From contig CAVOJZ010000002.1 in the NCBI GenBank assembly GCA_963696395.1, positions 848,619-912,618 of the forward strand: 64,000 nucleotides of DNA. Direction: 5' to 3'. This document shows positions 43,347 through 58,388 of the stretch, piece after piece. The stretch is from an uncultured bacterium (GTDB taxonomy: Bacteria; Patescibacteriota; Minisyncoccia; UBA6257; 2-01-FULL-56-20). How positions within the stretch are numbered: the stretch's first letter is position 1; every line of letters starts with the position of its first letter. Position numbers and translations under genes: made by a program. The notes beneath the pieces are model-generated. The model did no database searches, had not been told where the DNA came from, and saw only the letters and a program-made list of their open reading frames with translations.

Positions 43347-43919
43347 ATGAAGGGAAAGCAAACGCTGATCGTGCTCGAGTTGTTGGCAGTGCAGCCGACG
43401 GGTTCGTACGATCTTTTGCAAAAATTATTCGAAGCCGAATATGAGACGACCTACCGGCGTGAAGTAAAAGAACGAGGACGTGTTCTTGCCGTAAAGCTGA
43501 TGCGCTCCCGGTATCACAATTTTCTTTATAAGTTAATGCGCGATGGACTTATCGTTCAGAAAGAAGAAGGCGCCGGGAAGCATTTTGCCATTTCAAAAAA
43601 AGGCCAATCAAAACTCCTATCATTGCGGGGCAGGGGAACACTTCCCGATAAGAAAAATTATCCGAAAGAGGATGGAGCCGGTTTTACGGTGGTGACGTTT
43701 GATATACCCGAAGCTGATCGGAAAAAAAGGGATTGGTTGCGAAGCGTTTTAAAGCATTTGGGATTTACGATGGTGCATAAGAGCGTGTGGCTGGGGAAAA
43801 CTCGCATACCGATTCATCTTCTGCGCGATCTGCAGACACTCAATCTTTTTGAGCATATGGAGGTATTCCAGGTGTCAAAACTCGGAAATCTCAAAAAATT
43901 TTCAGCGTCGAAGGCTTAA
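43347..43919 (+). CDS. PaaX-like transcriptional regulator: N-terminal winged HTH fused to a Cas2/VapD-fold domain
   Basis: The wHTH (IVLELLAVQPTGSYDL...LMRDGLIV) is followed by FTVVTFDIPEADRKKRDWLRSVLKHLGFTMVHKSVW. That segment matches the Cas2 core and the middle domain of PaaX. Confidence 0.6.
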   Translation: MKGKQTLIVLELLAVQPTGSYDLLQKLFEAEYETTYRREVKERGRVLAVKLMRSRYHNFLYKLMRDGLIVQKEEGAGKHFAISKKGQSKLLSLRGRGTLPDKKNYPKEDGAGFTVVTFDIPEADRKKRDWLRSVLKHLGFTMVHKSVWLGKTRIPIHLLRDLQTLNLFEHMEVFQVSKLGNLKKFSASKA

Positions 43920-44133
43920 GCTGTTTTAGTGCTGCGGCCGGGAATTCATATAGATAAGAGCGAATCCATTCTTCCGTTCGTGGCAACGGATAATTGACGA
44001 TGTTTTTGAAAAGAGACGACAGGCTTGTTGTCGTTTGTTAAAAAAAACGATTCGCATTTTATCATCCGAAAAACGGCAATCGGCTCCTTATGGTTCTGGA
44101 CAATAATAATCTTGCTGGTATTGCAAATCTCCG

Positions 44134-44142
44134 TGCTAAAAT
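44134..44142 (+). promoter_or_regulatory. extended -10 element (TGcTAAAAT) upstream of the giant gene
   Basis: tgctaaaat lies 14 nt before the ATG at 44156. Confidence 0.35.
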
Positions 44143-44155
44143 TTAACTAAAGAGT

Positions 44156-47100
44156 ATGAAAAGACGCCGCGGTTTCCAGAAAACTATTTCGATCGGGGTC
44201 GCCATTTTTTCGGTTCTGATTTTTTTAGCAACTAATTTTGATGTTGCGAATGCACTCACTTACACATTTTCACAAAGCAACTGGAGTGGCGGGGTGAATG
44301 GAGGAACCTTACAATCTCCGACGACAAGTTCAACCCAGTATGCTTCGGTAAGCAATGTGATCGCGGGAACGAATACTATTACGCTCGCAACATCTTCACT
44401 TTCGATTACGCAAACATCCGACGCGGATTTTAATGCAGGGACATTTGCGAGCACCACCGAAACTGGAGTCGCCGCATCGGGAAGCGTTATATTAGTGGCG
44501 GCGCCAGCGGCAACGACTACGCTGGTATATTCCTATACGGGCGCGACATCAACCTTTACGGTTCCGACCGGTGTGACGAGTATCACGATTCACGCCGTGG
44601 GCGCTGGCGGAGAAAATGGTTATGCGTCAGGTGGCGCTGGCGGATCGAGTACGGGAACTTTGGCGGTGACTCCTGGTCAGATATTTTACATCGTTGTCGG
44701 TGGCACTGGCGTTGCTTCCAGTAGTGGAAATTATATCGGAGGGTACGGCGGCGGAGGCAGTGGTTTTGGCGGCGCAGGCGACGGCGGTGGCGGTGGTATG
44801 ACCTGGTTTGGAGCATCGAGCACAATCGGCACGTCAACGTCAACATCCCAGGTCATATTGGTAGCCGGCGGCGGCGGAGGCAGCGGGGAAAATTCCCTTT
44901 ATAGTGGCGCCGCAGGCGGCGGTAGTAGTGGTGCCGCTGCTGGTACTGGCGGCGGTGGTGGCACCCAGGTCGCCGGAGGCGCCGCAGGTGCTGGCGGAGG
45001 CGATAGCGCAGGTTCTTTCGGACAGGGTGGCAACTCTCCACCGGCTGCTGGCCAGGGTGGTGGTGGTGGTGGTGGCTATTTCGGGGGCGGCGGCGGCAGT
45101 TGTAATTCGGGCTGTAGTAATAGTGCCGGCGGCGGCGGATCCGGCTTTATAAAAAACACGCTTACGAATGCAACGACGACTCTCGGAACTGGTGCGGCGT
45201 CCTCCACGAATGGATCGCTTACCATTACCTATGGACCAGCTCGCGTCACTTCGTATTCCTATACGGGCGCGACATCAACTTTTACGGTTCCGACCGGTGT
45301 GACGAGCATCACGATTCACGCCGTGGGCGCAACCGTAGCCGCTTCCGCTAGCGAAGGGGGCGCGAGTACAGGTACTCTCGCGGTAACTCCGGGACAAACA
45401 TACTATATTGTTGTTGGTGGGCAGAATTCGGGGGCCAACGGGGGATATGGGGGAGGCGGAACCGGTGCTATCAATGGCGGGGCGGGAATGACCTGGTTCG
45501 GGGCGTCGAGTACGATTGGCACATCAACATCCACATCACAGGTCATATTGGTCGCCGGCGGTGGTGGTAGCGACGGTGTTGGTGGTGGCGCCAACGGTGG
45601 TAGCGAGGGTTCCGGCGGCGGTGGCGGCGGCGGTACTCAGTTAGCCGGTGGCGCTGGCGGCATTGATGAATCCGATGGCAATCCGGGATCTTTCGGCCGA
45701 GGCGGCAGTGAGTCAGGCAACGGCGGCGGCGATGGCGGCGGCGGCGGATACTTTGGCGGCGGACAGGGCGGATATTACGAAGATGGAGGTACAAGCGATG
45801 CCGGCGGCGGCGGATCCGGCTTTATAAAAAACACGCTTACGAATGCAACGACGACTCAGGGAATTATCGGTCCCTCCGGGAACGGTTCTTTGAGCGTCAC
45901 CGATATTCCGCCGGGTCTTTACGTTGCCTCGGGCACATTCGTTTCTTCAGCAATCAATGCCACCAATTTTTCATGGGGAACGATCTCTTGGGTGAATAGC
46001 GGCTCGGCGTCAACGACGATCACCATGCAGGCGCGTTCGGCGGCTACGAGTGCGGGATTGTCCGCAAAGGCGTGGGGAAGTTGCGCTGCAATCACAAGCG
46101 GCGGATTGCTCACAAGTGGGAACTGCGTGACGAACGGAGATTCATATATCCAATACCAGGCAACGCTTTCCACGGCAAGTTCGACGCAAAGCCCATCTCT
46201 TGATAGCGTGACTATGACCTATGTAGGATACGTCGCTTCCGGAACACTCGTTTCGCAACCATTCAACACTGGTGATCCAACCGACGCAATTGGTGAGCTT
46301 GATTGGACCGAAGCAACATCGACTGGTGCGGGTGTCACGGTGTCGCTACGCTCGGCTTCAACCTCCGCAGGACTTTCGTCAGCGAGTTGGCAGAATTTCA
46401 CCGATCAGACTCCGGGAGCGACAAATGTCGCCGTAACGTCTTCTATTTACACACACACCACTCAAGGAGAACAGACAAACGACGGTAGTAACTGCAATGA
46501 TGAAATAGGCACACAATTCAACACCTCACAAAATGGAAGTATCACTGCGATTCAGTTCTATAAAGATCCAAATGACACCATTACTCATATTGGAAACATC
46601 TGGGATGCTTCCACGACGGCGCTTCTTGCCTCCACTACCTTTATCAATGAATCTGCTTCTGGGTGGCAGACGCAAAATCTAGCATCGCCCCTTTCCGTTA
46701 CTGCCGGAAAACAGTACATCGTTTCCTATGGATCTAAAGTGTGCCCTTCAACTGCGTCAGGCGTATTACCCCTGACAAATGGCCCGCTGACACTTCCCGT
46801 AAGTGCGCACGCGTACTATGCTGGGCTTAATAAACTTGACGCTTTTCCAAACACACACGAAATCAATGGCATATATGATTTGACCGATGTCGTCTTTTCT
46901 TATCAGGTTGCATCAAATGTCACCGTCCCCAACGCCGTCATTCCCTCAGCTTTAGAGTCCAACTCTCAATACTGGCAATATATGGTGACTGAAAGTTCGA
47001 CGGGTGCTTCAACTCCGACCGTTTCGAATGTGACGGTAAAATATGTTATCAATGCTCCGCCACAATTTAACACGGCAATTGGTGGCGGGACTGGCGTTGC

Positions 47101-50100
47101 CGTGAGCGAATTGAATGGCACCTCATCCAATCCGGGCCTGGTTCAATTCCAATTTTCCGCTCTTGATCCTGATGCAGATAGTGATGGTGCCTCCGGTGGG
47201 CACGCCACGTCTACGGTCACGCCAAGCTATCAATATTCGCTGAATGGCGGCGCAACATGGAATACGATGAACACGTTTATCACGCCAAATGCGACATCGG
47301 ATATTGTCATGGCAACAAACACATATTCACCGACGTCCACTATTGTTTGGAACGCGGCGGCTGACGTGGGATCTCAATATACCGGCAATGCAGAAATCGC
47401 GGTCACGTTAAATGACCACCAGTTGGCAAACAATACGGCAACGGCGACGAGCACGGCCTTCGTGCTCGATACAAAAGCTCCCGTTATTAATTCGCTGACC
47501 ATGGATGCGAGTCAGGGGACGATTAACTATAATTTCGCGGATAATTCAAGTTTTTCGTATCGATTGTCGGCATCTCCATTCGCGACGTCCACGCCGACGT
47601 CGTCACTGCCCTTCGTCGCAGTTAACGGAAATGCGACGAGTGTTTCAAATTATGCATTCAATTTCATTGCAACAAGCAGTCCGGTGATATCCATTGAAGT
47701 CGAAGACATCTATGGAAATGATGCGTATCAAACGTTTACCGGTCCCGTCGAACCGACAGGGCTTGCTGTTAAGGACATTTCGAACCGGCAGACAGGGGTT
47801 TTCGGCGTTTATCTTTCTTGGGCAACGAGCACTATTGGAAGTTTCAAACAGTACGATATTTTCCGTTCCACGGGTGGTTCTTTTTCGCAAATTGCGACCA
47901 ACGTCAGTGTGGGTAGTACAACCTACGCCGATTACGGACTTTCGTCGTCGACGGCCTATTACTATAAAATCAGGGTAGAGGATACCAACGGCAATATTTC
48001 TGCGTTTACGCCACAATTTTTTATCACGCCGACCGGAAGTGGCGGTGGTCCGGCGATTTCATCCGTGTCGGCTAATCCGGGCGACACAAACGCAATCGTT
48101 AACTGGAATACGAATATTTTACCTGCGTCATCGTACGTGTATTATTCAACATCGCCGGTGATGGCCGCGCCCGTTTCGATTGTTGCCGCTGTCGCAACAT
48201 CAGGGCCGCCATTTGTGAATACCGCGAATCTCATCAATCTTACGCCGTCATCAACATACTATTACTATGTGCAGTCAACCGATTCTCAAGGAAATACCAC
48301 AATCGATAATAACAGTGGAAATTATTATTCATTCAAAGCCACTAACTCTCAGCCGCCTGTCATCAGCAATATCCAGATTACACCAACGCAGAACGCAGCC
48401 GACATTCGTTGGCAGACCAGCAAACCCAGCAATTCGGCGGTTTATTTTGGGACTTCTTCCGGGCAGGAAACAACCTCGGTTAGCAGTACTGTTTCTTTAA
48501 CTACGACACCGGAAGTTTTGTTAACCGGTCTCCAGGCGTCCACCACTTACTACTATTACCTTTATTCCGCCGATTCGTTGAACCATGTGGCAACAACCAC
48601 CGAATCGTTCTTCTCGACCTCGCAATTCGCGCCGATCATTTCCGGTGTGACGAATGCTGCTGTGACAACAAGTACGGTCACAGTCACTTGGACAACCGAC
48701 AAATCTTCAAATTCGTTCATCTTTTATTCTGCGACAACAACGCCGAGTTCTTTTGTTGGCGTTGCGGGCAATAGCACAACCACAGCTCATACGGTGACGG
48801 CTACCGGTCTTACGCCGACCACCACCTACTATTATTACGTGCAGTCGACGGATCCGTCGGGCGACATCGGCACCGACAACAATAACGGCATGTATTATAC
48901 GGTCAAGACCGCGCTCGACACTTCACCGCCCACAATTTCCGGAATTCAGACCCCGTCCCTTGGCCAGACGGTGGCAACGGTGACCTGGGATACCAACAAG
49001 CCGGCAAGCTCGCAGGTCTTTTACGGCACCTCGAGCGTGGCTTATGCATTTTCGTCGCCGATGGACGGAACGCTTCTTACGGCGCATTCTGTGTCTTTGA
49101 GTAACTTGGCGGCTGCGACGCCATACTACTTTATGGTGCGTTCAACGGATCAGTACGGCAATAGCGCAACATCAACCCAGCAAACATTCACAACCCTCAC
49201 GTTGCCCGGCCCGCAGATTACGAGTGTCACCGTGGCTTCAACTTCCGACTTTGGCGCCACGGTTGCATGGACGACAAATACCAATTCCGATTCTCACGTT
49301 TATTACTCCACGAGCACGAACTCTTTTGCCAATTCCGCCGGTAGCGCTCAGCTCGTCGGGGGAATAGCTCCCTTCGCACATTCGGTATCGCTTACCGGCT
49401 TAACGCCTTCGACCACCTACTATTTCTACGTTCAGTCAACGGATGTGAACAATAATACGTCGATTGATAAAAATGGCGGCGTCTATTATTCACTCGCGAC
49501 CACTAATAACGCAAATCCGACCATTTCAAATATCGCGGCATCCTCGCTTACGGCTTCTTCGTCGATTATCACCTGGTCGACCGACAAATTATCCAACTCG
49601 CAGGTTCTCTACGGAACCACATCCGGAAGCTATCCGTCGTCAACGATCATCCAGGATAATAATCCCCGCGTCACCGCGCACTCGGTGGCGATAACCGGAC
49701 TTGCGGCAAATACGGAATATTACTACGTCGTTCGATCGACAGATTCCGCCGGCAATTCCTCCCAATCTGCCGAACAAAACTTTACAACCGTAACGCCGGC
49801 CGGCCCGCAGATTTCTTCCGTTGTTGCGGCATCCACGAGCGACTTCGGCGCGACGATAACCTGGATTACGAACACCAATTCGGATTCTCATGTCTATTAT
49901 TCAGATAGTACGTCAACCTTTACGCTTTCCTCGGGTAGTGGGAGTTTGGTCGGCGGCACGCCGCCGTATCAGCATTCGGTAACGATATCCGGACTCTCGC
50001 CTTCGAGCACCTATTACTTCTATGTCCAATCGGTTGATGCCTATAACAATTCTTCAATCGATAAGAATGGGGGATCCTATTATTCATTCTTCACGACGAA

Positions 50101-53100
50101 TGCGCAAAACCCGGTCATTTCCGGAGTTGCCGTAGTGGTTGAAAGCCAGACGACTGCCGGCATCACCTGGTCGACCGACAAATTATCCAACTCGCAGGTT
50201 CTCTACGGAACCACGTCCGGAAGCTATCCGTCGTCAAGCGCAATATTCGACCAGTCATATGTGACGACGCCGCACACGGTGGCGCTTTCAGGGTTAGCCG
50301 CGAACACAACGTACTACTTCGTCGCTCGTTCGGTTGACGACGTCGGGAACGCCGGCACCTCAACTCAGTCCACGTTTCAAACATTGCCGCCGACAGCACC
50401 TCAGATTTCAGGAATAAGTTCAACGACTTCCGATTTCGCCGCAACCGTCACGTGGTTGACGAACAGCGCCGCGGATTCCAAGGTGTACTACGGAACATCC
50501 AGTTCATCTCTCACGCTTCTTGCGGCAAGTTCGTCGCTCGTTACATCGCATTCTGTTCCAATTGCCGGCCTTGCACCCGGGACGAATTATTACTTCTATG
50601 TGCAGTCAACGGATGCGAGCAACAACACGACGATCGATAATAATCTCGGGGCGTACTATCCGTTTACAACCACGCATAGTCAGTTGCCGCTAATATCCGG
50701 GGTCAGTTCAAACGCGGTTACAACCACGAGCACTCTCGTAACCTGGAGCACAAATACGTCCGCAAATTCAGCCGTGTATTTTGCCACATCAACCGCCGGC
50801 GTGCTGGGATCGACGCCGATCGTAAATAGCTCATTGCTCACCAGCCATAGCATGCAGCTCACGAGCCTCATGCCGGGTACCCAATATTATTATGCCGTTC
50901 AATCGACTGATGGATTTGGAAATACAGCAACCGATACCAGTGGCGGCGCTTACTATTCGCTCACGACACTTCCGGCGGCAACGTTAATCACGGGTGTCGC
51001 GGCAACGTCAACGCCAACCTCGTTTATCGCTCAATGGACCACAAGCATTCCGGCGACTTCATATGTTTATTATTCCACGGCCACTTCGACCATCGGAACC
51101 GGAACTTCGGTCGGCAATGACACCCAAACAACCTCGCATTCGATAACGGTTCCGAATCTTACCGCGAGCACAACGTATTACTTCTACGTGAAGTCAACCG
51201 ATGCAAACGGCAATACGGCAACCGATACCAATGGCGGCTCGTATTATGCGGTCACCACGCTTCCCGGAATCGCCATTTCGAACGTCGCGGCGGCTCCGGC
51301 GGACACAAGCGTTTCTATTACATGGGACACGCAGGTTTCCGCCGATTCGTTCGTTTTTTACGGCACCGCCACCTCATCTCTCAATACTTCATTTGGAAGC
51401 TCAACGCTTGTTGGCGGGGTTGCGCCGTTCGCGCACTCGGTGCTTGTGACCGGCCTTACCCCTTCGACAACGTATTACTTTTATGTTCAATCAACTGATG
51501 CGAACGGCAACATCATGGTTGATAACAATAACGGAAATTATTACACGTTCACCACGACGTTTTCACAGCCTCCGGTTTTGAGCAATATCAATGTTTCCTA
51601 TCTCACCGGCGATACTGCGGCCATTTCGTGGACGACGGACAAACTGACGAATTCAGAAGTGGATTACGGGATCGCGAGCGGACAGGAAACCTCAAGCACT
51701 GCGTCATCGTCGCTTGCGACGAGCCATCAGATCTTCATTACCGGTCTTGCACCGCAGACAACGTATTATTACGTGGTCAGTTCTGTCGACGCGGAGGGGA
51801 ATGCCGCATCATCAACCGAGCTCACCTTTACAACGCAGACGCCGGTCTTCTCGAACGTAACAACGACCTATGCGGGAGACACGTCGGCAATCATTGCGTG
51901 GCAAACGACCATGGACTCCAACTCGTATGTCCATTACTTTGATCCGGCAGCCGGCGGGTCGTTGGCGATCGGTGTTGGAACGTCAACATTCGTTGGAGGG
52001 TCGGCTCCATTCCAGCACTCCATAGAAATTGACGGTTTGAATCCGGGAACAACCTATGAATATTATCTTGAATCAGACGACGCGAACGGCATTACTCATG
52101 TGGATGACAATTATAAGAATTACTACACCTTCGCAACCACCGACCATAGGCCACCGGTAATTACCGATATCCAAACGCCGATCATAAACCAGAGCTCGGC
52201 CATCATAACCTGGGCTACCGATAAGCTTTCGACAAGCCAGATAAATTGGGGCACCGCCTCCGGTGTTTACGGAACAAGCACGACGGTTGATCCGACGCTT
52301 ACGATTTATCACGCCGTCCCCCTCATGAATCTTGCGGCGTCAACCACCTATTATTTCCAGGCTGTTTCACAGACGAGCATCGGTAGCCAGGCGGTCTCGG
52401 GAGATAATTCGTTTTCAACGGAATCCGTTAATCAACCCATCATTGAAGGTTCCGGCGGTGGCATAATATATATTTATCCAGCTGTCGATACTACGCCGCC
52501 AGTCATCTCAGGCGTAACTGCGACAACGACGCCCTTTGACGCCACAATAAGTTTTTCGACCGATAAGCCGGCAATCGGTTTCGTGGAATATGGTTCGTCA
52601 ACGGACTATGCGTATGGCGCTGCCGACGGCGCTTTTAATGCCAGCCATACCATTCTGGCAAAAGGACTCGTAATGGGAACAACCTATCACTTCTATGTAA
52701 AAGCGATCGATAAATCGGGTAATGTGGCAACGACGACGGATCAAACGTTTACGACGCAATATCTAACAGAGGCATCCTTGTCGCAGACGACCACATTCGA
52801 AAATGCCTATCAATTTCAGCAGGAAATTGAGAATAGCATCGCATCGGCATTGCCAAGCCTTGTCCCGCCTTTCCTCGGTACGCCGATTATCAGCAGTACA
52901 ACGGAAAATAGTGCCACCATCAGCTGGACGACCAATATCAATTCGTATTCAATCGTTTACTATGCGGCGGACAGCGATTATAATAGTACGGCGAAAAATC
53001 CATATACATCTCAAACTTCGGACGTGAATACAAAAACAACCACTCACTCACTCACCCTGACCGGTCTTCAGCCGAACACGCTCTATCACGTTATGGCAGA

Positions 53101-53827
53101 GTCTTTCAGCATTCCTGGAGTTTTTGGCAAGAGTGGAGATATCACCTTTACGACAGCCGCTTCAAAAGTAACGGCCCAGGTGAGTGATATCACGCCCGCA
53201 AGCTTCCGCATTTCGTGGACGACTGACGAACCAACCAATTCTGTGGTTCAATATAAAGATATGACAACCGGTCTCACCCAGACGATTACCGATGACACGA
53301 TGACGACACTTCATGCCGTGGATGTTCCGAATCTCGAATCAGCCAGGACGTATGAGGTTTCCGCCTCCGGTTTTACCGCCTCCGGAAATTCGGTGCCGGC
53401 GGAAAATCTGATAACCGTGCGAACCACAAAAGATGTGACGCCGCCGAAGATCGCTAATATCAAAATCCAGACGATCATCGATCCTCAATCACCGAATGTT
53501 GCACAGGCGCTGGTTGGCTGGACAACCGATAAGCCGGCAAACTCCACGGTTCGCTACGACGCAGGAGTGGGAGGAGCAACGTCAACTTTCTCGCACACCC
53601 TTCAGGATCTTACGAGCTACACCATGAGCCACGTCATTGTGGTGCCAAATCTTGCGCCGGGATCGATCTATCGTATCCAGATTTCCTCCACGGATGAGGC
53701 AAGCAATACCACGACGTTCCCGACGCAAACCATCGTGGTCTCGCAGCAATCACAGTCGATTCTGGATGTTATCCTCAACAATTTCGAAAACACATTCCAG
53801 TTCCTGCAAAACGTCCAACAACCCTAA
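44156..53827 (+). CDS. giant secreted/surface protein (3,223 aa): signal anchor, two tandem glycine-rich domains, a DUF4082-like module and more than 20 fibronectin-III / purple-acid-phosphatase-N-like repeats
   Basis: Single ORF with an N-terminal hydrophobic anchor. Two duplicated Gly-rich domains (YSYTGATSTFTVPTGVTSITIHAVGA...VTPGQ.YYIVVGG). IGTQFNTSQNGSITAIQFYKD fits DUF4082. A repeated module of about 95 aa (TW.T...S.S.VYY.TS...HSV.LTGL.P.TTYYFYVQSTD..GN) recurs along the C-terminal two-thirds. Confidence 0.9.
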   Translation: MKRRRGFQKTISIGVAIFSVLIFLATNFDVANALTYTFSQSNWSGGVNGGTLQSPTTSSTQYASVSNVIAGTNTITLATSSLSITQTSDADFNAGTFASTTETGVAASGSVILVAAPAATTTLVYSYTGATSTFTVPTGVTSITIHAVGAGGENGYASGGAGGSSTGTLAVTPGQIFYIVVGGTGVASSSGNYIGGYGGGGSGFGGAGDGGGGGMTWFGASSTIGTSTSTSQVILVAGGGGGSGENSLYSGAAGGGSSGAAAGTGGGGGTQVAGGAAGAGGGDSAGSFGQGGNSPPAAGQGGGGGGGYFGGGGGSCNSGCSNSAGGGGSGFIKNTLTNATTTLGTGAASSTNGSLTITYGPARVTSYSYTGATSTFTVPTGVTSITIHAVGATVAASASEGGASTGTLAVTPGQTYYIVVGGQNSGANGGYGGGGTGAINGGAGMTWFGASSTIGTSTSTSQVILVAGGGGSDGVGGGANGGSEGSGGGGGGGTQLAGGAGGIDESDGNPGSFGRGGSESGNGGGDGGGGGYFGGGQGGYYEDGGTSDAGGGGSGFIKNTLTNATTTQGIIGPSGNGSLSVTDIPPGLYVASGTFVSSAINATNFSWGTISWVNSGSASTTITMQARSAATSAGLSAKAWGSCAAITSGGLLTSGNCVTNGDSYIQYQATLSTASSTQSPSLDSVTMTYVGYVASGTLVSQPFNTGDPTDAIGELDWTEATSTGAGVTVSLRSASTSAGLSSASWQNFTDQTPGATNVAVTSSIYTHTTQGEQTNDGSNCNDEIGTQFNTSQNGSITAIQFYKDPNDTITHIGNIWDASTTALLASTTFINESASGWQTQNLASPLSVTAGKQYIVSYGSKVCPSTASGVLPLTNGPLTLPVSAHAYYAGLNKLDAFPNTHEINGIYDLTDVVFSYQVASNVTVPNAVIPSALESNSQYWQYMVTESSTGASTPTVSNVTVKYVINAPPQFNTAIGGGTGVAVSELNGTSSNPGLVQFQFSALDPDADSDGASGGHATSTVTPSYQYSLNGGATWNTMNTFITPNATSDIVMATNTYSPTSTIVWNAAADVGSQYTGNAEIAVTLNDHQLANNTATATSTAFVLDTKAPVINSLTMDASQGTINYNFADNSSFSYRLSASPFATSTPTSSLPFVAVNGNATSVSNYAFNFIATSSPVISIEVEDIYGNDAYQTFTGPVEPTGLAVKDISNRQTGVFGVYLSWATSTIGSFKQYDIFRSTGGSFSQIATNVSVGSTTYADYGLSSSTAYYYKIRVEDTNGNISAFTPQFFITPTGSGGGPAISSVSANPGDTNAIVNWNTNILPASSYVYYSTSPVMAAPVSIVAAVATSGPPFVNTANLINLTPSSTYYYYVQSTDSQGNTTIDNNSGNYYSFKATNSQPPVISNIQITPTQNAADIRWQTSKPSNSAVYFGTSSGQETTSVSSTVSLTTTPEVLLTGLQASTTYYYYLYSADSLNHVATTTESFFSTSQFAPIISGVTNAAVTTSTVTVTWTTDKSSNSFIFYSATTTPSSFVGVAGNSTTTAHTVTATGLTPTTTYYYYVQSTDPSGDIGTDNNNGMYYTVKTALDTSPPTISGIQTPSLGQTVATVTWDTNKPASSQVFYGTSSVAYAFSSPMDGTLLTAHSVSLSNLAAATPYYFMVRSTDQYGNSATSTQQTFTTLTLPGPQITSVTVASTSDFGATVAWTTNTNSDSHVYYSTSTNSFANSAGSAQLVGGIAPFAHSVSLTGLTPSTTYYFYVQSTDVNNNTSIDKNGGVYYSLATTNNANPTISNIAASSLTASSSIITWSTDKLSNSQVLYGTTSGSYPSSTIIQDNNPRVTAHSVAITGLAANTEYYYVVRSTDSAGNSSQSAEQNFTTVTPAGPQISSVVAASTSDFGATITWITNTNSDSHVYYSDSTSTFTLSSGSGSLVGGTPPYQHSVTISGLSPSSTYYFYVQSVDAYNNSSIDKNGGSYYSFFTTNAQNPVISGVAVVVESQTTAGITWSTDKLSNSQVLYGTTSGSYPSSSAIFDQSYVTTPHTVALSGLAANTTYYFVARSVDDVGNAGTSTQSTFQTLPPTAPQISGISSTTSDFAATVTWLTNSAADSKVYYGTSSSSLTLLAASSSLVTSHSVPIAGLAPGTNYYFYVQSTDASNNTTIDNNLGAYYPFTTTHSQLPLISGVSSNAVTTTSTLVTWSTNTSANSAVYFATSTAGVLGSTPIVNSSLLTSHSMQLTSLMPGTQYYYAVQSTDGFGNTATDTSGGAYYSLTTLPAATLITGVAATSTPTSFIAQWTTSIPATSYVYYSTATSTIGTGTSVGNDTQTTSHSITVPNLTASTTYYFYVKSTDANGNTATDTNGGSYYAVTTLPGIAISNVAAAPADTSVSITWDTQVSADSFVFYGTATSSLNTSFGSSTLVGGVAPFAHSVLVTGLTPSTTYYFYVQSTDANGNIMVDNNNGNYYTFTTTFSQPPVLSNINVSYLTGDTAAISWTTDKLTNSEVDYGIASGQETSSTASSSLATSHQIFITGLAPQTTYYYVVSSVDAEGNAASSTELTFTTQTPVFSNVTTTYAGDTSAIIAWQTTMDSNSYVHYFDPAAGGSLAIGVGTSTFVGGSAPFQHSIEIDGLNPGTTYEYYLESDDANGITHVDDNYKNYYTFATTDHRPPVITDIQTPIINQSSAIITWATDKLSTSQINWGTASGVYGTSTTVDPTLTIYHAVPLMNLAASTTYYFQAVSQTSIGSQAVSGDNSFSTESVNQPIIEGSGGGIIYIYPAVDTTPPVISGVTATTTPFDATISFSTDKPAIGFVEYGSSTDYAYGAADGAFNASHTILAKGLVMGTTYHFYVKAIDKSGNVATTTDQTFTTQYLTEASLSQTTTFENAYQFQQEIENSIASALPSLVPPFLGTPIISSTTENSATISWTTNINSYSIVYYAADSDYNSTAKNPYTSQTSDVNTKTTTHSLTLTGLQPNTLYHVMAESFSIPGVFGKSGDITFTTAASKVTAQVSDITPASFRISWTTDEPTNSVVQYKDMTTGLTQTITDDTMTTLHAVDVPNLESARTYEVSASGFTASGNSVPAENLITVRTTKDVTPPKIANIKIQTIIDPQSPNVAQALVGWTTDKPANSTVRYDAGVGGATSTFSHTLQDLTSYTMSHVIVVPNLAPGSIYRIQISSTDEASNTTTFPTQTIVVSQQSQSILDVILNNFENTFQFLQNVQQP

Positions 53828-54267
53828 TGCCGAATGCAAAACTCAAAGTATTACTCGTTGACGACGATGAGATAATCAGGATTTACTTCCACGATATTTT
53901 TTGGATCTACGGCTTTGAAAGCCGATGCGATCTCGCGATTGCGGCAAACCTCGACGATGCTGATCGAATAGTAATGGATCCGGCAACCCGCCCGGATGTT
54001 ATTTTCCTTGACCTCGCTCTTCCAAAGAAAGTCGGGGAGAGAACGCTTATCGATCCGAAGTACAGCTTCGAATTTTTGGAAAAAATAAAAAAAGATCCGG
54101 AACTGCATAAGATAAAGGTAATGATTTTTTCTGGCCACTCGGAAAAAGAATACGTAGATGAGGCAAAAGCACGCGGTGCGGATGGTTACATCCATAAAGA
54201 ACAAAGCCTCCCCAAGGATCTTATAGCCACCATCAATAGTGTTATCAACGGTATCAAAAAATCATGA
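53827..54267 (+). CDS. stand-alone response-regulator receiver (CheY-like) domain protein
   Basis: LLVDDD acidic pocket, phospho-acceptor Asp in IFLDLALP, Ser in IFSGHS and Lys in YIHKE. Its ATG shares a base with the giant's stop codon. Confidence 0.8.
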   Translation: MPNAKLKVLLVDDDEIIRIYFHDIFWIYGFESRCDLAIAANLDDADRIVMDPATRPDVIFLDLALPKKVGERTLIDPKYSFEFLEKIKKDPELHKIKVMIFSGHSEKEYVDEAKARGADGYIHKEQSLPKDLIATINSVINGIKKS

Positions 54268-55568
54268 CCGAGCCGATTATCAAGCTGGAAAATGTGAATT
54301 TCTGGTACGATCGCGGGAAGCCGAACGAATACCACGCCTTGAAAGATGTTTCGTGTGAAATTTATCCCGGGGAGTATGCCGCTTTTTTTGGCTCGTCCGG
54401 CTCCGGCAAAACAACACTTCTTTATCTCATAGCAGGCATCGAACAGGGTCAGGAGGGCAAGATTATGATAAACGGGCGCGATATTTCGACCTTCACCAAG
54501 CAGGAACTTGCGATTTACCGCCAGATTGGCGTCGGCATGGTGTTCCAGCAATTCAACCTCATTCCATCGCTTACCGTTGTCCAGAATGTTATTTTGCCGA
54601 TGTCGTTTCTTGGTGCTGCGGAAAGCCGTGCCAAGAAAGAGGCGATGGAGCTTTTGAAGCGGGTCGGCATTGACCATCTTGCGGATCGTTACCCGAGTGA
54701 ATTATCGGGCGGCCAACAGCAGCGTGTCGGTATTGTCCGGGCGCTCGCCAATAACCCGCCGATTATTGTTGCCGACGAACCGCTTGGAAATCTCGACTCC
54801 ACAAACGCAGAAACCGTACTTCAATTCCTGAAAGAGTTGAACGAAAAAGATGGCCGGACCGTAATCATGGTTACTCACGAGGCCTGGAGTCTTCGCGATG
54901 CCAAGAAGGTTTTCTATATCAAAGACGGCGCTGTCACAAAGGAAGCTGCGGGCGATCCCAAAAAGGTCAGCGAAACGCTCTCACGAAGGATGTATGGTAA
55001 GCTTGCTCCCGAGCTGTCACAGAATCAGCTTACGGCGCACACTTTTTCAAATCTTTTTTTGCGCGGGTATTCCGATCCGGAACTTAAGCGCTTTGAATTT
55101 TTCCTGAACCAGCGCTTGGATAGTAAAATCGAACCCGATGTTTTTGCGATGGTTCTGCACCGGCCGTGGCGCGAAGGGGGACTAGGTTTGTGGAAACAAA
55201 AAGCGGCGCGGGTTGCGACGTGGGTTGAAGACGTGATCGAAAAGCGCCGCGAAGTGAGTGATGTATATAAAGAGCTGGAGCTCCACCCCGAATCGCCTCT
55301 GCGCGACGATGTCGAAAAATTGAAGGCGTGGCTTTTGGGAGAATATTCGGGAAAAGTTTCGGAATTACAAAATGACCAGTTAACGGAACTCGTAAATGAG
55401 CGGATAAGAGGGATCATAACGCCCGAGAACCTGTTTTCAATTTTGAGTTTGCCGCGCAGTAAATCCGGGCTGGGCTTTTCAACGCGAACCGCGAGGCGCA
55501 TCGATGAAAAGTTGGAATTTATTTTAAAGGAAGGCCATCCGGATGTGTCATCATTTTCCACCGTATAA
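54264..55568 (+). CDS. MacB/FtsE/LolD-type ABC ATPase with an approximately 200-aa C-terminal extension containing internal tandem repeats
   Basis: Walker A GSSGSGKTT, signature LSGGQQQR and Walker B IIVADEP. The extension carries two similar repeats of about 85 aa (LSQNQLTAHTFSNLF... and LQNDQLTELVNERIRG...). ATGA overlap with the REC gene. Confidence 0.9.
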   Translation: MTEPIIKLENVNFWYDRGKPNEYHALKDVSCEIYPGEYAAFFGSSGSGKTTLLYLIAGIEQGQEGKIMINGRDISTFTKQELAIYRQIGVGMVFQQFNLIPSLTVVQNVILPMSFLGAAESRAKKEAMELLKRVGIDHLADRYPSELSGGQQQRVGIVRALANNPPIIVADEPLGNLDSTNAETVLQFLKELNEKDGRTVIMVTHEAWSLRDAKKVFYIKDGAVTKEAAGDPKKVSETLSRRMYGKLAPELSQNQLTAHTFSNLFLRGYSDPELKRFEFFLNQRLDSKIEPDVFAMVLHRPWREGGLGLWKQKAARVATWVEDVIEKRREVSDVYKELELHPESPLRDDVEKLKAWLLGEYSGKVSELQNDQLTELVNERIRGIITPENLFSILSLPRSKSGLGFSTRTARRIDEKLEFILKEGHPDVSSFSTV

Positions 55569-55573
55569 AACCC

Positions 55574-56797
55574 ATGATACAAAAAGAAATCGTTCCTCAT
55601 CAGCTTGGTATCCGTGATCTTGTGCGGCTTTCTGTACGAAGTTTTTCTGCAAAACCGACACGCACCATCCTCACGATTGTCGGAACGTCGGTTGGTATTG
55701 CCACGGTTGTGGTTCTTGTTTCGCTCGGATATGGGTTGCAGGGTATTTTGCTCGGAAAGCTCATTACCACGCCGCAATCGCTCATAACCTGCTGTGCCTC
55801 ATACCCTTCGGACAGCAGCCTCGTTATAGATCAGGCGAAAGTTGACGCAACTTCAAAACTTCCCGACGTTGCCGAGGTGAGTCCGGAGGCCGAATTTCCG
55901 GGCGCCGTGGAGCTGCCAGGCGGCGCTTCCGGCCTTGTCCTAGTGGACATCGCCGATTCAAACTATTTCCCGTTGTCAGGAGATCTGCCCGATATTGGCA
56001 AAGGATTCGGACCATCGGGCGGTGTCATCATAACGAGCCAGGCGCTGCGACTGCTCGACCTCTCATCAACAGCTTCCACGCTCGGCAAGGAGGTTCTTGT
56101 AACCGCTTTCTATCCCGGTCCCGCAGGAGGCAATGCCTATGACGTCACTTCGACAACTGCAGTCCCGATTACCGGCATTGTTGTCAATAACGCGGAAACG
56201 CCGACCATTATCGTTTCGAACACTTCATTTCCGGTTGCCCCGCCTTATTACAAACAGGTTTATGTCGAAGCAAAAAATGATTCGGCGTTCACCGATTTGC
56301 GAAGCACGCTCGTCGGACAGGGGTTTGTGATTTCCGCCCACATTGATCTCGTCCGACAGGCTCAGCAAGTGACAAACATTATTACGATCATACTCGGCAT
56401 CTTTGGCATCGCTGCACTTCTCGTTTCGGCGATCGGCATGTTCAATACGATGATCGTCGGATTTCTCGAACGAACATACGAAGTTGGAGTTATGAAGGCG
56501 CTTGGCGCCACAGATAGCGACGTGCGGCGTTTGTTTTTGACCGAGGCGCTTGTCATGGGCGTTGCCGGAGGTATTGTCGGCATCGTACTTGGCGTCGGGA
56601 TTGGGTGGCTTCTTAATCTTGTCGTGAGCCTTGTCTCCCAGCATTACGGCGGCGGCGCTTTTACTTTATTTGTGTCGCCTCTCTGGTTTATACTGGTTGT
56701 TATTGGCGTATCGGCTCTGATCGGCCTCGCAGCCGGATTTATTCCCGCGCGGCGCGCGACTCAGCTTTCGCCAAAAGAAGCATTCGTCAGGAAGTAG
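55574..56797 (+). CDS. FtsX/MacB-family ABC permease (N-terminal TM, large extracytoplasmic domain, three C-terminal TMs)
   Basis: Topology as stated, with the FtsX-domain motif LERTYEVGVMKALGATD. Confidence 0.85.
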   Translation: MIQKEIVPHQLGIRDLVRLSVRSFSAKPTRTILTIVGTSVGIATVVVLVSLGYGLQGILLGKLITTPQSLITCCASYPSDSSLVIDQAKVDATSKLPDVAEVSPEAEFPGAVELPGGASGLVLVDIADSNYFPLSGDLPDIGKGFGPSGGVIITSQALRLLDLSSTASTLGKEVLVTAFYPGPAGGNAYDVTSTTAVPITGIVVNNAETPTIIVSNTSFPVAPPYYKQVYVEAKNDSAFTDLRSTLVGQGFVISAHIDLVRQAQQVTNIITIILGIFGIAALLVSAIGMFNTMIVGFLERTYEVGVMKALGATDSDVRRLFLTEALVMGVAGGIVGIVLGVGIGWLLNLVVSLVSQHYGGGAFTLFVSPLWFILVVIGVSALIGLAAGFIPARRATQLSPKEAFVRK

Positions 56798-56809: not shown

Positions 56810-57781
56810 ATGAAATACGATATTTATTTTCATAATGATTTTGATGGCCGCGCGTGCGCCGCTGTTATGCTCGCTTTTTTACGCAGTCGCGGGGACGACA
56901 TTGAGCACTGCACGGCAGTGAATTATTACCTTCAGGCGGAATGGTTGGACGAGCGTTTTTTCGAAAAACACACTTTTTTCAAAGGAAAGCGGAACCCCGC
57001 TATCGTCGTGGATTTCCTTTATCATCCGAAAGCCGCATGGTGGTTCGATCATCATCCGACCACGTTTAAAAAAGAGGCATGGGGAAAGAACTATAAAGCC
57101 GATAAACAGCACAGCCTGAAACCGCAGTATCCTTCGTGTACACATCTCGTTCTGGCATCGCTCGAGAAAAATTTTGCCTGGCACCCGCCGAAGCATATCG
57201 TTGAACTCGTGAAGTGGCTGGATGTCATCGATGGCGCCAATTACCGATCCGCCCGCCAGACGATAGAAGTAAAGGAACCTGCTTTACAGGTGGATGAATT
57301 CATTGAGCGGAAAGCGCATAGCAGCGCCGAGGACGCCCGCATAATTGATTTGCTTTCCCGTCTCCCGCTTAAAAATATTGCGGCCCTGCCTGAAGTCAAG
57401 AAGTTTGTTTCTTGGATCAAAAAGGAAGACAAAAAGGGCCTCGTCTTTTGCCGGGAGAATGCCAGGATCGTTGGGGGAGTTTGCTCATTGGACCGAAGCA
57501 AATCTGCGCTGAAATTTCCGCATTTTGCTTTGCAATATCTTTTCCCTCGAATTGTGTATTTTATCAGAATAAGCGAACGGGACGGACTCTATCACATCAA
57601 TCTCGGTGTTAGTCCTTGGAAACGGGATAAAAGCACAATACGCGTTGATAGAATCCTAAAGCAATTCGGCGGTGGCGGACACAAAGATGTCGGAGGTGTT
57701 GAATTTAAAACGCACAGCGAAGCTCTTTCGGCAATGTCCGCCATAATCGCAATCATTAATCGTTCTCCGGAGCATGCCTAA
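56810..57781 (+). CDS. DHH-family phosphoesterase (NrnA-like nanoRNase/pAp phosphatase)
   Basis: DHH motif variant YFHNDFDGRACA, a C-terminal DHHA1 domain and the GGGH motif. Confidence 0.8.
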   Translation: MKYDIYFHNDFDGRACAAVMLAFLRSRGDDIEHCTAVNYYLQAEWLDERFFEKHTFFKGKRNPAIVVDFLYHPKAAWWFDHHPTTFKKEAWGKNYKADKQHSLKPQYPSCTHLVLASLEKNFAWHPPKHIVELVKWLDVIDGANYRSARQTIEVKEPALQVDEFIERKAHSSAEDARIIDLLSRLPLKNIAALPEVKKFVSWIKKEDKKGLVFCRENARIVGGVCSLDRSKSALKFPHFALQYLFPRIVYFIRISERDGLYHINLGVSPWKRDKSTIRVDRILKQFGGGGHKDVGGVEFKTHSEALSAMSAIIAIINRSPEHA

Positions 57782-58388
57782 AAAACAAAAGTATTACGCC
57801 TATTTCATCCCCGGCAAAAATAGTTCCGGCGTGGTGTCTGATTGGAAGGAATGCGAAAAGATGGTTAAAGGGGTATACGGAGCGCGGTTTAAGGCATTTG
57901 AAGCAAAACCAGAAGCGGAGGCATGGCTTCGCACCGGCGCGCGGTATGAACTAAAAACGCAGCCTAAATTGCGACCGGGGATCTATTTTGATGCCGGGAC
58001 GGGGCGGGGGGACGGCGTGGAGATCAGCGTGACGGACGAGCATGGTAAAAATCTCCTGCATAAAGTGCTTTCAAAAAGGGCAGTTAACCGTTTCGGAAAG
58101 CATGTGATCGGAAATGAGGCGGCTACGAATAATTATGGCGAACTTCTTGCGTTGAAATATGCGCTTGAAATTGCGCACAAGGAAAAAATCAAAAAGGTAT
58201 TCGGGGACAGCAAGCTGGTCATCGAGTTTTGGTCGCAGTGGCGTATAAAGCGAAACGATCTTCCGGAGGATACTGTTGATCTCGCTGACGAGGTTTCCGC
58301 ATTGAGGGAAACATTTGAAGCCAATGGCGGCGTGATCGAACGGATTTCCGGCGATTATAATCCGGCAGATCTCGGATTTCACTCGTAG
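57774..58388 (+). CDS. rnhA: ribonuclease H (RNase H1-like) with an N-terminal hybrid-binding domain
   Basis: HBD/Cauli_VI-like N-terminus (YYAYFIPGKNSSGVVSDWKECEKMVKGVYGARFKAFEAKPEAEAWL), then an RNase H fold with DEDD residues. Overlaps the DHH gene by 8 nt. Confidence 0.8.
   Translation: MPKKQKYYAYFIPGKNSSGVVSDWKECEKMVKGVYGARFKAFEAKPEAEAWLRTGARYELKTQPKLRPGIYFDAGTGRGDGVEISVTDEHGKNLLHKVLSKRAVNRFGKHVIGNEAATNNYGELLALKYALEIAHKEKIKKVFGDSKLVIEFWSQWRIKRNDLPEDTVDLADEVSALRETFEANGGVIERISGDYNPADLGFHS

Follow-up and report, generated by a model that had tools for sequence, protein, structure and literature searches.

A giant surface protein genetically linked to a MacB/FtsX-type ABC transporter and a receiver domain: an apparently undescribed module of the Patescibacteria

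A giant surface protein and a MacB/FtsX-type ABC transporter, usually together with a receiver (REC) protein, make up a conserved and apparently undescribed module of the Patescibacteria (CPR), a large assemblage of uncultured, ultra-small bacteria. The copy described here lies on the forward strand of a 64-kb stretch of DNA from an uncultured bacterium (the window). A preliminary description of this DNA, which did not recognise the arrangement as a known module, had assigned it to a CPR cell, and indeed all relatives of the module are Patescibacteria, the closest being a Paceibacterota MAG, and no description of a giant–REC–ABC–FtsX module was found in the searchable literature. Our leading but tentative reading is that the module is a Patescibacteria-specific type VII (MacB/Lol/FtsEX-like) ABC mechanotransducer dedicated to one giant adhesin.

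Gene layout and conservation of the linkage

Five open reading frames occupy the region, encoding a PaaX-like protein (43347-43919, 190 aa), the giant (44156-53827, 3,223 aa), REC (53827-54267, 146 aa), the ABC ATPase (54264-55568, 434 aa) and the FtsX permease (55574-56797, 407 aa), and their lengths, domain calls and stop/start junctions are all as previously described. On inspection of the sequence the giant and REC genes overlap by 1 nt (ccTAATGcc at 53825-53829) and the REC and ABC genes by 4 nt (tcATGAcc at 54264-54267), followed by a 5-nt gap before the FtsX start at 55574; no Shine-Dalgarno-like motif is visible 5' of the REC, ABC or FtsX starts. These overlaps had been taken as evidence of coupling, but by themselves they are no proof of it since tight junctions are common throughout this genome: of 33 pairs of same-strand neighbours in the window, 18 overlap or are spaced by 15 nt or less, and unrelated pairs such as VirD4-like/PGK (ATGA overlap) and PGK/PaaX-like (4-nt gap) are equally tight. 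The transcript may also extend further, since the next gene 3' of FtsX, g323, starts only 12 nt downstream. The real evidence for a module is conservation across genomes and not the style of the junctions.

Linkage was ascertained in two ways. Using the C-terminal extension of the ATPase, in 49 species-representative Patescibacteria genomes, ABC was followed by FtsX in 49/49, REC was a direct neighbour in 42 of 46 informative loci, and 33 of approximately 43 contained a giant whose C-terminus is homologous. Using the giant tail alone, in 53 dereplicated metagenome clusters of which four were uninformative, the ABC/FtsX module was in the locus of 39/49. The giant and ABC/FtsX are therefore linked in approximately 77–80% of informative loci by either ascertainment, and the giant, REC, extended ABC and FtsX/MacB_PCD proteins form a real functional unit, as first proposed. 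The preliminary description had allowed for two contrary outcomes, homologous giants unlinked to these genes or an ordinary FtsEX beside division genes, and neither was found.

The linkage persists through several rearrangements. The giant is divergent from REC–ABC–FtsX in seven loci (L001, L006, L013, L045, L069, L083 and L121), the order is ABC–FtsX–REC–giant in L014, L032 and L044, ABC is divergent from FtsX→giant in L132, and an additional gene separates giant and REC in L039, L041, L077, L118 and L123. Distant ATPases (27–31% identity in the extension) still adjoin giants that share the mature N-terminus and have a cognate tail, and one MAG carries two divergent modules (53–71% identity), each with its own giant. 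There is a negligible chance that tight gene packing and inherited synteny, with no functional relationship, account for this. Overlapping or abutting genes are typical of the genome, unrelated pairs included, as such an explanation requires, but general synteny has decayed (the commonest of the other families around the module, LeuRS, TypA, YchF and similar, occurs in only 13/51 loci) and the four genes stay together despite inversion and changes of order, even at 27% identity, so that packing is effectively refuted by the reciprocal conservation tests. The pairing is not obligatory in cis, given that approximately 10 Yonathbacteria-like loci keep REC–ABC–FtsX with no giant within 10 kb and approximately 10 tail-bearing giants have no module in the flank retrieved; upstream, most of this flank is taken up by the giant itself, and some divergent modules may have escaped notice.

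The PaaX-like small regulator (43347..43919), with a putative N-terminal wHTH and a PaaX_M/Cas2-like domain (Pfam, E 2.2e-12), had been described with the operon but recurs as a loosely associated neighbour and does not belong to the fixed gene set; its homologues lie near the module or giants in approximately 17 of 136 loci (including L006, L014, L041, L067, L072, L075 and L110), at varying positions. It is probably a separate transcription unit. In the 236-nt intergenic region between it and the giant (43920..44155), a terminator-like hairpin (44015-44032) and a promoter-like site (44038-44065) match consensus, in scans that were at chance level overall.

The giant surface protein

The giant comprises a signal peptide, two Gly-rich modules, a DUF4082 domain, 20 fn3-like repeats and a C-terminal helix. 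Its Sec-type signal peptide (44156..44254, aa 1-33, hydrophobic core aa 10-28), with a predicted cut between VANA and LTYTF, precedes a mature N-terminus of conserved sequence, (A)TY.F.Q..WSGG, an architecture also seen in L004, L010, L013, L030, L032, L036, L045, L132 and L133. The tandem Gly-rich modules (ALK_LTK_GRD; 44528..45901, aa ~125-358 and ~367-582) score 35.4 bits against a Pfam cut-off of 24.5 and are duplicates, with 65% identity between the copies by self-BLAST. DUF4082 (46472..46855, aa 773-900) matched Pfam with an E value of 7.4e-28 and 97.7 bits when the giant was scanned as a sub-region. The array of fn3/Pur_ac_phosph_N-like repeats (47765..53728, aa 1204-3191) was recovered as 18 stretches by Pfam alone and as 20 repeats by self-HMM, which supports the Fn3-like repeats of the preliminary description and makes its count of ‘more than 20’ slightly generous. 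The giant's conserved terminal domain is the last of these repeats (aa ~3099-3194), predicted to be a β-sandwich (pLDDT 81–88).

Beyond it lies the C-terminal tail SQSILDVILNNFENTFQFLQNVQQP (53750..53824, aa 3199-3223). The giants, which span 1,400–3,200 aa, all end in a near-invariant, predicted 22-residue amphipathic helix containing ESIVDVIFKNFDETFNFI. It aligns at the very end of the protein in every family member, has a helical hydrophobic moment of 0.50–0.55 and includes the 10-aa block that is best conserved within the last 150 aa (68 sequences). AF2 places a helix at aa 3202-3220 with moderate confidence (pLDDT ~65, from a six-sequence alignment). Giant heads vary, with the last fn3 domain and tail constant. 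From this sequence pattern the tail is a candidate for the element recognised by the transporter, and the mature N-terminus, likewise conserved, could equally be that element. The C-terminal helix had been overlooked previously.

A conserved motif at the extreme C-terminus is also reminiscent of type 1 secretion (T1SS) substrates, and the giant adhesins LapA and SiiE rely on ABC-driven T1SS (PMC6272769). The transporter could on this basis be the export route of the giant, with the tail an uncleaved secretion signal of a type 1-like system in a monoderm. We consider this very improbable, and the export across the membrane that had initially been suggested is unlikely, since all complete giants begin with a signal peptide of the Sec type that includes an AXA site. 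The permease, moreover, is of type VII with four TM segments, and a HlyB-type exporter, a membrane-fusion protein and RTX repeats are all absent. Members of the type VII superfamily (MacB, LolCDE and FtsEX structures) are not known to have a transmembrane substrate channel.

The transporter and the receiver

The nucleotide-binding domain of the ATPase (54264..54950, aa 1-229) belongs to the MacB/LolD/FtsE clade and contains the Pfam domain ABC_tran at aa 26-174. Across 47 ATPase sequences there is no variation in Walker A, the Q-loop, LSGGQ, Walker B (D171-E172) or H205, and judged by sequence the catalytic motifs are all intact. LolD was the best NCBIfam match (199.7 bits) and FtsE the second (193.9 bits), with BceA, YtrE and Spr0694 among the closest solved relatives. 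The C-terminal extension (54951..55568, aa 230-434) is a duplicated all-helical domain, a feature overlooked in the preliminary description, with the motif LE.f...R..G.I....F...LD.P...GG.GL...tA; these 205 aa gave no Pfam match and no PDB/solved structural analogue and define a family with 135 or more clusters. The permease (55574..56797, 407 aa) matches FtsX (77 bits) and MacB_PCD (34.2 bits), both over the Pfam cut-off, and has four TM segments in a TM scan (aa 31-49, 269-287, 325-343 and 372-390) with a 220-aa loop, aa ~50-268, as its outside domain. Among solved structures it is closest to YtrF, MacB, Spr0695 and LolE/C/F, the alignment to Acinetobacter baumannii MacB being full-length (E 1.7e-25), and its predicted topology is that of a type VII protein with a MacB_PCD domain.

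The FtsE score, the matches of the permease to FtsX models, YtrEF as the closest solved pair and the sight of no further FtsEX in the window would fit FtsEX/YtrEF-like wall remodelling, in which a hydrolase or synthase is activated or positioned so that a 3,000-residue giant can pass through the peptidoglycan/S-layer or be fixed in it, or else the division FtsEX of the lineage with the giant as a passenger neighbour. We regard this as improbable, because the FtsE/FtsX equivalog cut-offs are missed widely (193.9 vs 264.85, 48.3 vs 255 and 35.7 vs 225), the outside domain of the permease is MacB_PCD and not FtsX ECD, the conserved surroundings include neither a coiled-coil hydrolase of the EnvC/PcsB/CwlO type nor a division gene, and two paralogous modules in one MAG fit a single-copy division function poorly.

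The stand-alone REC (53827..54267, 146 aa; Pfam Response_reg 50.7 bits vs a cut-off of 30.2) has a canonical active site (D12, D13, D62, S102 and K124) and a family-specific insertion after β3. Control by phosphorylation, as suggested earlier, is consistent with this site and at best applies to part of the family: the phospho-acceptor Asp is replaced by Gly or Cys in 12/40 orthologues, REC is absent from at least nine module lineages, and no histidine kinase was found in the window or conserved across 130 loci. The lineages that lack REC keep the ATPase extension, so there is no clean pattern of REC–extension co-loss.

A rather unlikely alternative, though one we give some weight, is that the link is functional but indirect: the transporter would handle some other substrate required by the giant (a lipid or glycolipid, the cleaved signal peptide or a small amphipathic peptide) or protect the membrane at the attachment site, and co-inheritance would reflect co-regulation with no contact. 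Monoderm MacB-type pumps, HrtBA, BceAB and YbbAP remove small molecules of hydrophobic or amphipathic character from the outer leaflet (PMC12646458), the closest solved relative YtrEF is part of a cell-envelope stress operon, and the Yonathbacteria-like loci manage with no adjacent giant. Set against this are the reciprocal linkage, held over deep divergence and several rearrangements, the separate giant of each paralogous module, REC, ABC and FtsX as the sole conserved neighbours of the giant, and an invariant terminal helix on a fast-evolving giant, which calls for a conserved binding partner.

Relationship to known systems and proposed function

Assignment of the module to FtsEX, Lol, MacAB or type 1 secretion was considered and rejected. 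Scores far below the equivalog and Lol cut-offs make it neither an ordinary FtsEX nor a Lol system. FtsEX with its extracellular partner is nevertheless the best analogy for how it may work. Both have a separate ATPase and a 4-TM FtsX-family permease, and FtsEX, through its large outside domain, binds a helical element in a dedicated protein outside the cell (EnvC in E. coli; PcsB, CwlO and RipC in monoderms and mycobacteria), with ATP hydrolysis serving mechanotransmission and not transport (PMC7668044 and PMC10694151). The module differs in its missed FtsE/FtsX cut-offs, in having MacB_PCD in place of FtsX ECD, in a partner that is an fn3 adhesin-like protein of 1,400–3,200 aa and not a coiled-coil hydrolase activator, in lacking a division-gene context and in adding REC and a 200-aa helical ATPase extension. 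LolCDE shares the LolD and LolC/E/F matches and offers the concept of extraction, proposed here for the giant's anchor: LolCDE and YbbAP-TesA use ATP to extract from the outer leaflet the hydrophobic anchor by which a Sec-exported protein is embedded in the membrane (PMC8333309 and PMC12646458). Yet the module scores far under the Lol cut-offs (199.7 vs 307.75 and 47.4 vs 362), has a single permease gene, no LolA/LolB and no lipobox, its candidate anchor is a C-terminal amphipathic helix and not an N-terminal triacyl group, and its hosts have no outer membrane.

MacAB-TolC, Spr0694/0695, YtrEF and YknYZ share the MacB_PCD and FtsX permease, but unlike MacAB-TolC the module has ATPase and permease as separate genes, and among the loci compared no MacA/HlyD-type adaptor, hydrolase or division gene is conserved around it; it also has a dedicated giant neighbour, an extended ATPase and a REC subunit. 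LapA (LapBCE, LapD/LapG) and SiiE (SiiCDF) are likewise giant repetitive adhesins encoded beside their own ABC system, with a cytoplasmic signalling input that sets surface retention or release (PMC6272769 and PMC7493085). Those systems are T1SS (HlyB-type exporter, MFP and OMP) with no Sec signal, with RTX/BIg repeats and under c-di-GMP or proton-channel control, whereas the present giant depends on Sec, its ABC system is of type VII and a REC domain provides the signalling element. In BceAB-BceRS a type VII-related ABC is also wired to two-component signalling, and BceA is among the closest solved ATPases, but BceB has 10 TM segments and signals to a histidine kinase and DNA-binding regulator, in contrast to a 4-TM permease, no kinase and a REC without output domain. 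New in the module are the invariant tail helix of the giant, the duplicated helical ATPase domain, and a REC that is canonical here yet acceptor-less in approximately 30% of orthologues.

Type VII ABC systems typically pair with a dedicated extracytoplasmic partner, as in FtsEX-EnvC, LolCDE-LolA, MacAB-TolC and YbbAP-TesA (PMC12646458 and PMC7668044). As a mechanotransducer for the giant, the module may work as follows. The giant would be exported via Sec and its signal peptide cleaved at the AXA site, its variable head of Gly-rich modules and DUF4082 being projected on a stalk of approximately 20 fn3 repeats, with the amphipathic C-terminal helix remaining at the membrane surface. There we infer that the FtsX/MacB_PCD permease dimer would make physical contact with the tail through its extracytoplasmic domain and TM groove, and ATP binding and hydrolysis would be transmitted outward as in FtsEX-EnvC or LolCDE. 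The work done by the transporter could run in either direction, the giant being held and actuated by it, or its tail being extracted and released for hand-over to the wall or shedding. On the cytoplasmic side, control would lie with the stand-alone REC, which presumably contacts the unique helical C-terminal domain of the ATPase, and which may be phosphorylated in this genome and act without phosphorylation in other lineages. By means of this module the cell can probably use ATP to keep hold of its main attachment protein, to move it or to release it.

Gene organisation of the locus

The five open reading frames named in the preliminary description were recovered at exactly the same positions, all on the forward strand (+): a PaaX-like gene (43347-43919; 190 aa, PaaX_M/Cas2-like domain), the giant surface protein (44156-53827; 3,223 aa), a stand-alone receiver (REC; 53827-54267; 146 aa, Response_reg), an ABC ATPase (54264-55568; 434 aa, ABC_tran followed by a 205-aa extension without a Pfam match) and a permease (55574-56797; 407 aa, FtsX and MacB_PCD). 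The domain calls made there (PaaX_M, Gly-rich, DUF4082, fn3-like, Response_reg, ABC_tran, and FtsX with MacB_PCD) were likewise upheld. Read from the sequence, the last A of the giant TAA stop is the A of the REC ATG, the REC stop and ABC start form ATGA, and 5 bases separate the ABC and permease genes. No Shine-Dalgarno-like motif precedes the REC, ABC or permease starts, which would be compatible with termination-reinitiation. These junctions had been read as evidence of coupling, an argument not borne out by a crude gene call of the window, where 18 of 33 same-strand neighbour pairs overlap or are spaced by <=15 nt, clearly unrelated pairs included: genes for a VirD4-like ATPase and phosphoglycerate kinase (PGK) share an ATGA overlap, and the PGK and PaaX-like genes are 4 nt apart. 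Gene spacing in the window is thus what mere gene packing, one rival explanation of the linkage, would look like.

The PaaX-like gene had been described as a regulator upstream of the module (giant, REC, ATPase and permease). Its PaaX_M domain was confirmed, and 236 nt containing a hairpin and a promoter-like site separate it from the giant gene, promoter and terminator scans of the window being overall at chance level. The gene has no fixed place beside the module, being present in only ~17 of 136 loci, at varying positions and on either strand, and is not counted as part of it.

The other neighbours in the window are the PGK and VirD4-like genes, an RNase H gene and a P-type ATPase gene. The VirD4/TraG/HerA-like ATPase (39834-42227, +; 797 aa) overlaps the PGK start with its stop; in L016, L041 and L124, homologues lie downstream of the module at a distance of 5-8 kb. 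The gene g323 (56810-57781, +; 323 aa, no Pfam or NCBIfam match) starts 12 nt downstream of the permease gene and has, by eye, a DHH-like 'HNDFDGRACAAV' motif near its N-terminus; only L002, L053 and L136, the closest relatives, have it after FtsX, along with the RNase H gene (57774-58388 in the window).

Assignment of the ABC transporter

The ATPase has LolD, FtsE, MacB and DevA as its top NCBIfam matches (E 1e-54 to 1e-59) and MJ0796, YtrE, BceA, Spr0694, MacB and LolD as its top PDB matches. Walker A, Q-loop, LSGGQ, the Walker B Asp-Glu and the H-loop His are invariant in 47/47 orthologues, and it is therefore predicted to be active. The permease scores 77 bits with FtsX (PF02687; cut-off 25.5) and 34.2 bits with MacB_PCD (cut-off 27), and has TM helices at aa 31-49, 269-287, 325-343 and 372-390 with a 220-aa outside domain between TM1 and TM2; among solved structures, YtrEF, MacB (aligning with the whole permease), Spr0694/0695 and LolCDE/LolF come closest, true FtsX being distant. 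On these sequence matches we assign the pair to the type VII ABC superfamily, the MacB/LolCDE/FtsEX mechanotransducers.

None of the named members of that superfamily fits. The preliminary description had allowed that the pair might be an ordinary FtsEX beside cell-division genes, yet it falls short of the equivalog cut-offs (FtsE 193.9 vs 264.85; FtsX_Gneg 48.3 vs 255; FtsX_Gpos 35.7 vs 225; FtsX_actino 21.4 vs 250), and no division or hydrolase-activator gene (ftsY, or an EnvC/PcsB/CwlO-type partner) is conserved in 51 or 131 loci. Wall remodelling is a rival reading for a pair whose ATPase counts FtsE among its best matches; a second FtsEX and a hydrolase partner were sought in the window and the related loci and not found. 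LolCDE was rejected on LolD (199.7 vs 307.75) and lolCE (47.4 vs 362.45) scores and on the signal site of the giant, which is an AXA site without a lipobox Cys, and MacAB-TolC on MacB scores of 184.8 (ATPase) and 82 against a cut-off of 966. No third conserved family, including any MFP (MacA/HlyD-family) adaptor, stands next to ABC/FtsX in the loci examined. A rival in which the giant is the cargo of a type 1-like export system was rejected on three counts: the permease is of the FtsX and not the HlyB type, there is no MFP, and giants carry Sec-type signal peptides.

The window encodes a separate transporter, of the ABC-2/DrrA type and not FtsEX, comprising a DrrA-like ATPase (7019-7744, +) and an ABC2_membrane_2 permease (7683-8501, +), beside a 295-aa protein without a family match (8504-9391, +).

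Conservation of the module around the ATPase

The exact sequence of the window ATPase had no match in the collection searched, and word-indexed protein searches returned only 2 matches for the extension and only 5 for the giant C-terminus. An exhaustive HMMER search with the extension (family cut-off E < 1e-3, clusters at 50% identity) gave a family of 135 clusters defined by the extension alone, more than 50 of them ~420-450-aa proteins with the same NBD plus extension layout. A genome-scan pattern derived from a nine-sequence alignment of close members, covering the 'GGvGLW' subfamily, yielded 49 loci from species-representative genomes, all of them Patescibacteria (Paceibacterota, Wolfe-, Yonath-, Lipton-, Kaiser-, Terry-, Nomura- and Staskawiczbacteria) apart from two evidently mis-binned contigs. 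The module is complete in L020 and L038, labelled Thermoplasmata archaeon and Burkholderiales, which are probably binning errors. The closest relative is the Paceibacterota MAG locus L002, with protein identities of 64-88% and an identical gene order, including g323 and RNase H.

Within ±8-10 kb of each match, tblastn maps placed FtsX next to ABC in 49/49 loci, REC adjacent in 42 of 46 informative loci (39 upstream of ABC; downstream of FtsX in L014, L032 and L044) and a giant with a homologous C-terminus in 33 of ~43. With all ORFs clustered, shadow ORFs included, giant and ABC fell into one family and antisense 'families' arose, so greedy gene calls were used together with the tblastn maps. 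Among clustered crude gene calls the ABC family occurred in 51 loci, FtsX in 50, REC in 40 (a few more being masked by antisense ORFs) and the giant in 33, whilst the next most frequent family reached only 13; the four module families are the sole conserved ones, and of the conserved neighbours of the ABC/permease pair the giant alone is secreted. The runners-up (LeuRS, TypA/BipA, YchF, DUF5671 and an IS200-like transposase) reflect sub-clade synteny and lie outside the module.

Distant ATPase relatives, with 27-31% identity in the extension, keep the association: L133 has a 2,207-aa giant overlapping ABC→FtsX, L134 a giant C-terminus followed by ABC, and L132 an ABC gene divergent from FtsX→giant. 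One MAG, with the caveat that MAGs can be chimeric, holds two modules sharing 53-71% identity, and each has a giant of its own.

Several loci depart from this layout. Yonathbacteria-like loci (L009, L011, L015, L017, L018, L029, L031 and L050) have a REC with Gly at the acceptor position, ABC and FtsX with no giant within 10 kb, and a DUF5671 membrane protein and LeuRS as divergent neighbours; the same neighbours occur in L045 with the giant in place, which suggests that the giant has been lost or relocated in the former. In the Kaiserbacteria loci L021 (1026-2323) and L129, two short remnants of the giant terminal domain lie directly upstream of ABC-FtsX, each adjoining an IS200-like transposase gene, and REC is absent; the giant appears to have been destroyed through IS insertion in this lineage. 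The L001 and L136 contigs contain many frameshift-split genes, with giant, ABC and FtsX each called in pieces, as is typical of uncorrected long-read assemblies; truncated versions of these families are consequently present in protein databases.

Anatomy of the giant and its invariant tail

Every complete giant homologue begins with basic residues, after which come a hydrophobic core and an AXA site, features from which export by Sec would be expected, and then a conserved mature N-terminus, (A)TY.F.Q..WSGG. In the window giant the sole hydrophobic segment is aa 10-28, and no lipobox Cys was found. Two tandem Gly-rich modules (ALK_LTK_GRD), 65% identical to each other, a DUF4082 domain (aa 773-900, E 7e-28) and 20 fn3/Pur_ac_phosph_N-like repeats (aa 1204-3191) make up its body. 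Heads of the giants are variable, the Gly-rich region and DUF4082 being detectable in some homologues only; what stays constant is the last fn3 domain and, even more so, the ~22 residues at the end.

This tail has the consensus …RTIITPr..ESIvDVIFKNF(D/E)(D/E)TFnFi.Nv-COOH and reads SQSILDVILNNFENTFQFLQNVQQP in the window. Across 68 dereplicated sequences, no other 10-residue block within the last 150 residues is as conserved as its core (aa 3204-3213), which has a helical hydrophobic moment of 0.50-0.55. An AF2 model of the giant C-terminus, based on six sequences, predicted a β-sandwich (aa ~3099-3194, pLDDT 81-88), a short linker and a separate helix (aa 3202-3220, pLDDT ~65), the tail in this model not belonging to the fn3 fold as one of its strands. 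That the terminal helix is invariant while the rest of the protein evolves fast implies that it binds a conserved partner; since the only conserved candidates are the three neighbour proteins, and only the permease among them has an outside domain, the permease is the candidate.

A second large surface protein of the window (12342-16316, +; 1,324 aa), with NHL repeats, BACON_2, He_PIG and a C-terminal PG_binding_1 domain, has no linked ABC system. The window also encodes two neighbouring DUF5666 proteins (9394-10299, - and 10473-11681, -), with a HYDIN/VesB-like Ig-domain protein (11811-12476, -) near them.

Conservation of the module around the giant

Against ascertainment bias, metagenome contigs were searched with the last 70 residues of the giant only, giving 80 tail loci that were dereplicated into 53 clusters. 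The ABC/FtsX module was present in 39 of these, 4 were too short to judge and 10 lacked the module in the flank covered; as the upstream flank is mostly giant body, divergent modules would be missed, and the linkage of ~80% is a lower bound. The commonest arrangement was tail→REC→ABC→FtsX. Roughly nine clusters had giant→ABC→FtsX with REC absent, six had the module upstream of the giant and divergent, and five had an extra ~640-aa membrane protein between giant and REC. The insert (L039, 2717-4627; L041, 3661-5613; also L077, L078, L118, L119 and L123), seen in one sub-clade, combines a signal peptide and TM segments with a region of 'SGYAWGxxxGWVN' repeats and a CarboxypepD_reg domain. In L120 the giant is followed by an ABC of the ordinary NMT1/BPD importer kind.

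Mere gene packing, compatible with the tight spacing common in the window, had been expected to leave giants of other genomes unlinked to ABC/FtsX genes, which is not what either search found. We consider it highly probable that the giant and transporter genes are functionally coupled.

The ATPase extension and the receiver

Within the extension a ~55-residue unit, LE.f...R..G.I....F...LD.P...GG.GL...tA......lE, is duplicated, and a confident AF2 model is all-helical with two equivalent halves (pLDDT 88, pTM 0.74). REC is its obvious candidate partner, a pairing we put forward tentatively: modules without REC retain the extension, and no REC-ABC fusions were found, long N- or C-terminal extras being of low complexity and the hits P0058 and P0120 false positives.

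Phosphorylation control of the module, proposed from the presence of the receiver, stood in part. The window REC (Response_reg, 50.7 bits vs 30.2) has the full catalytic set (D12, D13, D62, S102 and K124), so that such control is possible there. It is not general, because of 40 REC orthologues, in which S102 and K124 show practically no variation, 28 have Asp at the acceptor position, 11 have Gly and 1 has Cys, no histidine kinase (HisKA or HATPase_c) was found among scanned window ORFs >=140 aa, and the related loci share no conserved kinase family. The Gly and Cys forms cluster in the Yonathbacteria-like clade and L032/L044, where, judging by the substituted acceptor, REC must be a pseudo-receiver. 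On this pattern of residues REC looks more like a regulatory subunit that was uncoupled from phosphorylation in some lineages and dropped in others.

A proposed mechanism

In all characterised type VII ABC systems, cytoplasmic ATP hydrolysis works on a dedicated extracytoplasmic partner and does not serve to pass a substrate through the membrane, the known examples being FtsEX-EnvC, LolCDE-LolA, MacAB-TolC and YbbAP-TesA (PMC12646458, PMC7668044, PMC8333309). By analogy, the most economical reading would be that the giant is the partner of the transporter and its C-terminal helix the handle. Whether the transporter acts directly on the giant we judge an even call; a rival is an indirect link via another substrate. 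That the tail is the element recognised we regard as plausible but slightly more doubtful than that. The tail might be a docking element, comparable to the FtsX-EnvC helix, or an in-plane membrane anchor extracted by the transporter, comparable to Lol; the N-terminal adhesive head would be distal and the tail proximal. A complete ATP-powered adhesion device, in which the transporter grips the tail under control of a REC docked on the extension and the adhesin is tensioned, retracted or shed, is a speculative and, on present evidence, rather unlikely extension of this reading.

Novelty and significance

Full-text searches (Patescibacteria/Parcubacteria/CPR, giant and surface proteins, fn3, MacB/FtsX, receivers, type VII ABC) found no published description of the module, in keeping with the initial impression that it had not been described. 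Large fn3-bearing surface proteins have been named as candidate host-interaction factors in papers on CPR epibionts, with associated machinery unreported (PMC13059738). The superfamilies of the parts are already known and the working principle has precedents; the partner class, the invariant tail, the ATPase extension and the REC subunit are new. Tail motif and extension provide two new family signatures for annotation, both missed by Pfam and NCBIfam. For the ABC field, the system would give the type VII mechanotransducers a fifth functional type and a new mode of regulation; were the adhesion device real, a type VII ABC system would for the first time have an adhesin as its partner, and an ABC ATPase would for the first time be controlled directly by a REC subunit.

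A large part of bacterial diversity belongs to the Patescibacteria/CPR, whose members are thought to live in attachment to other cells; to our knowledge, almost nothing is known of how they attach and detach. The module ties one widespread class of giants to an energy-using machine and a signalling input, and offers three concrete handles, namely the C-terminal helix, the ATPase extension and REC in its canonical and pseudo-receiver forms, which are open to work with purified proteins and structure prediction and need no culturing. If the adhesion-device reading is true, these genome-reduced episymbionts would possess a means of switchable host attachment and detachment.
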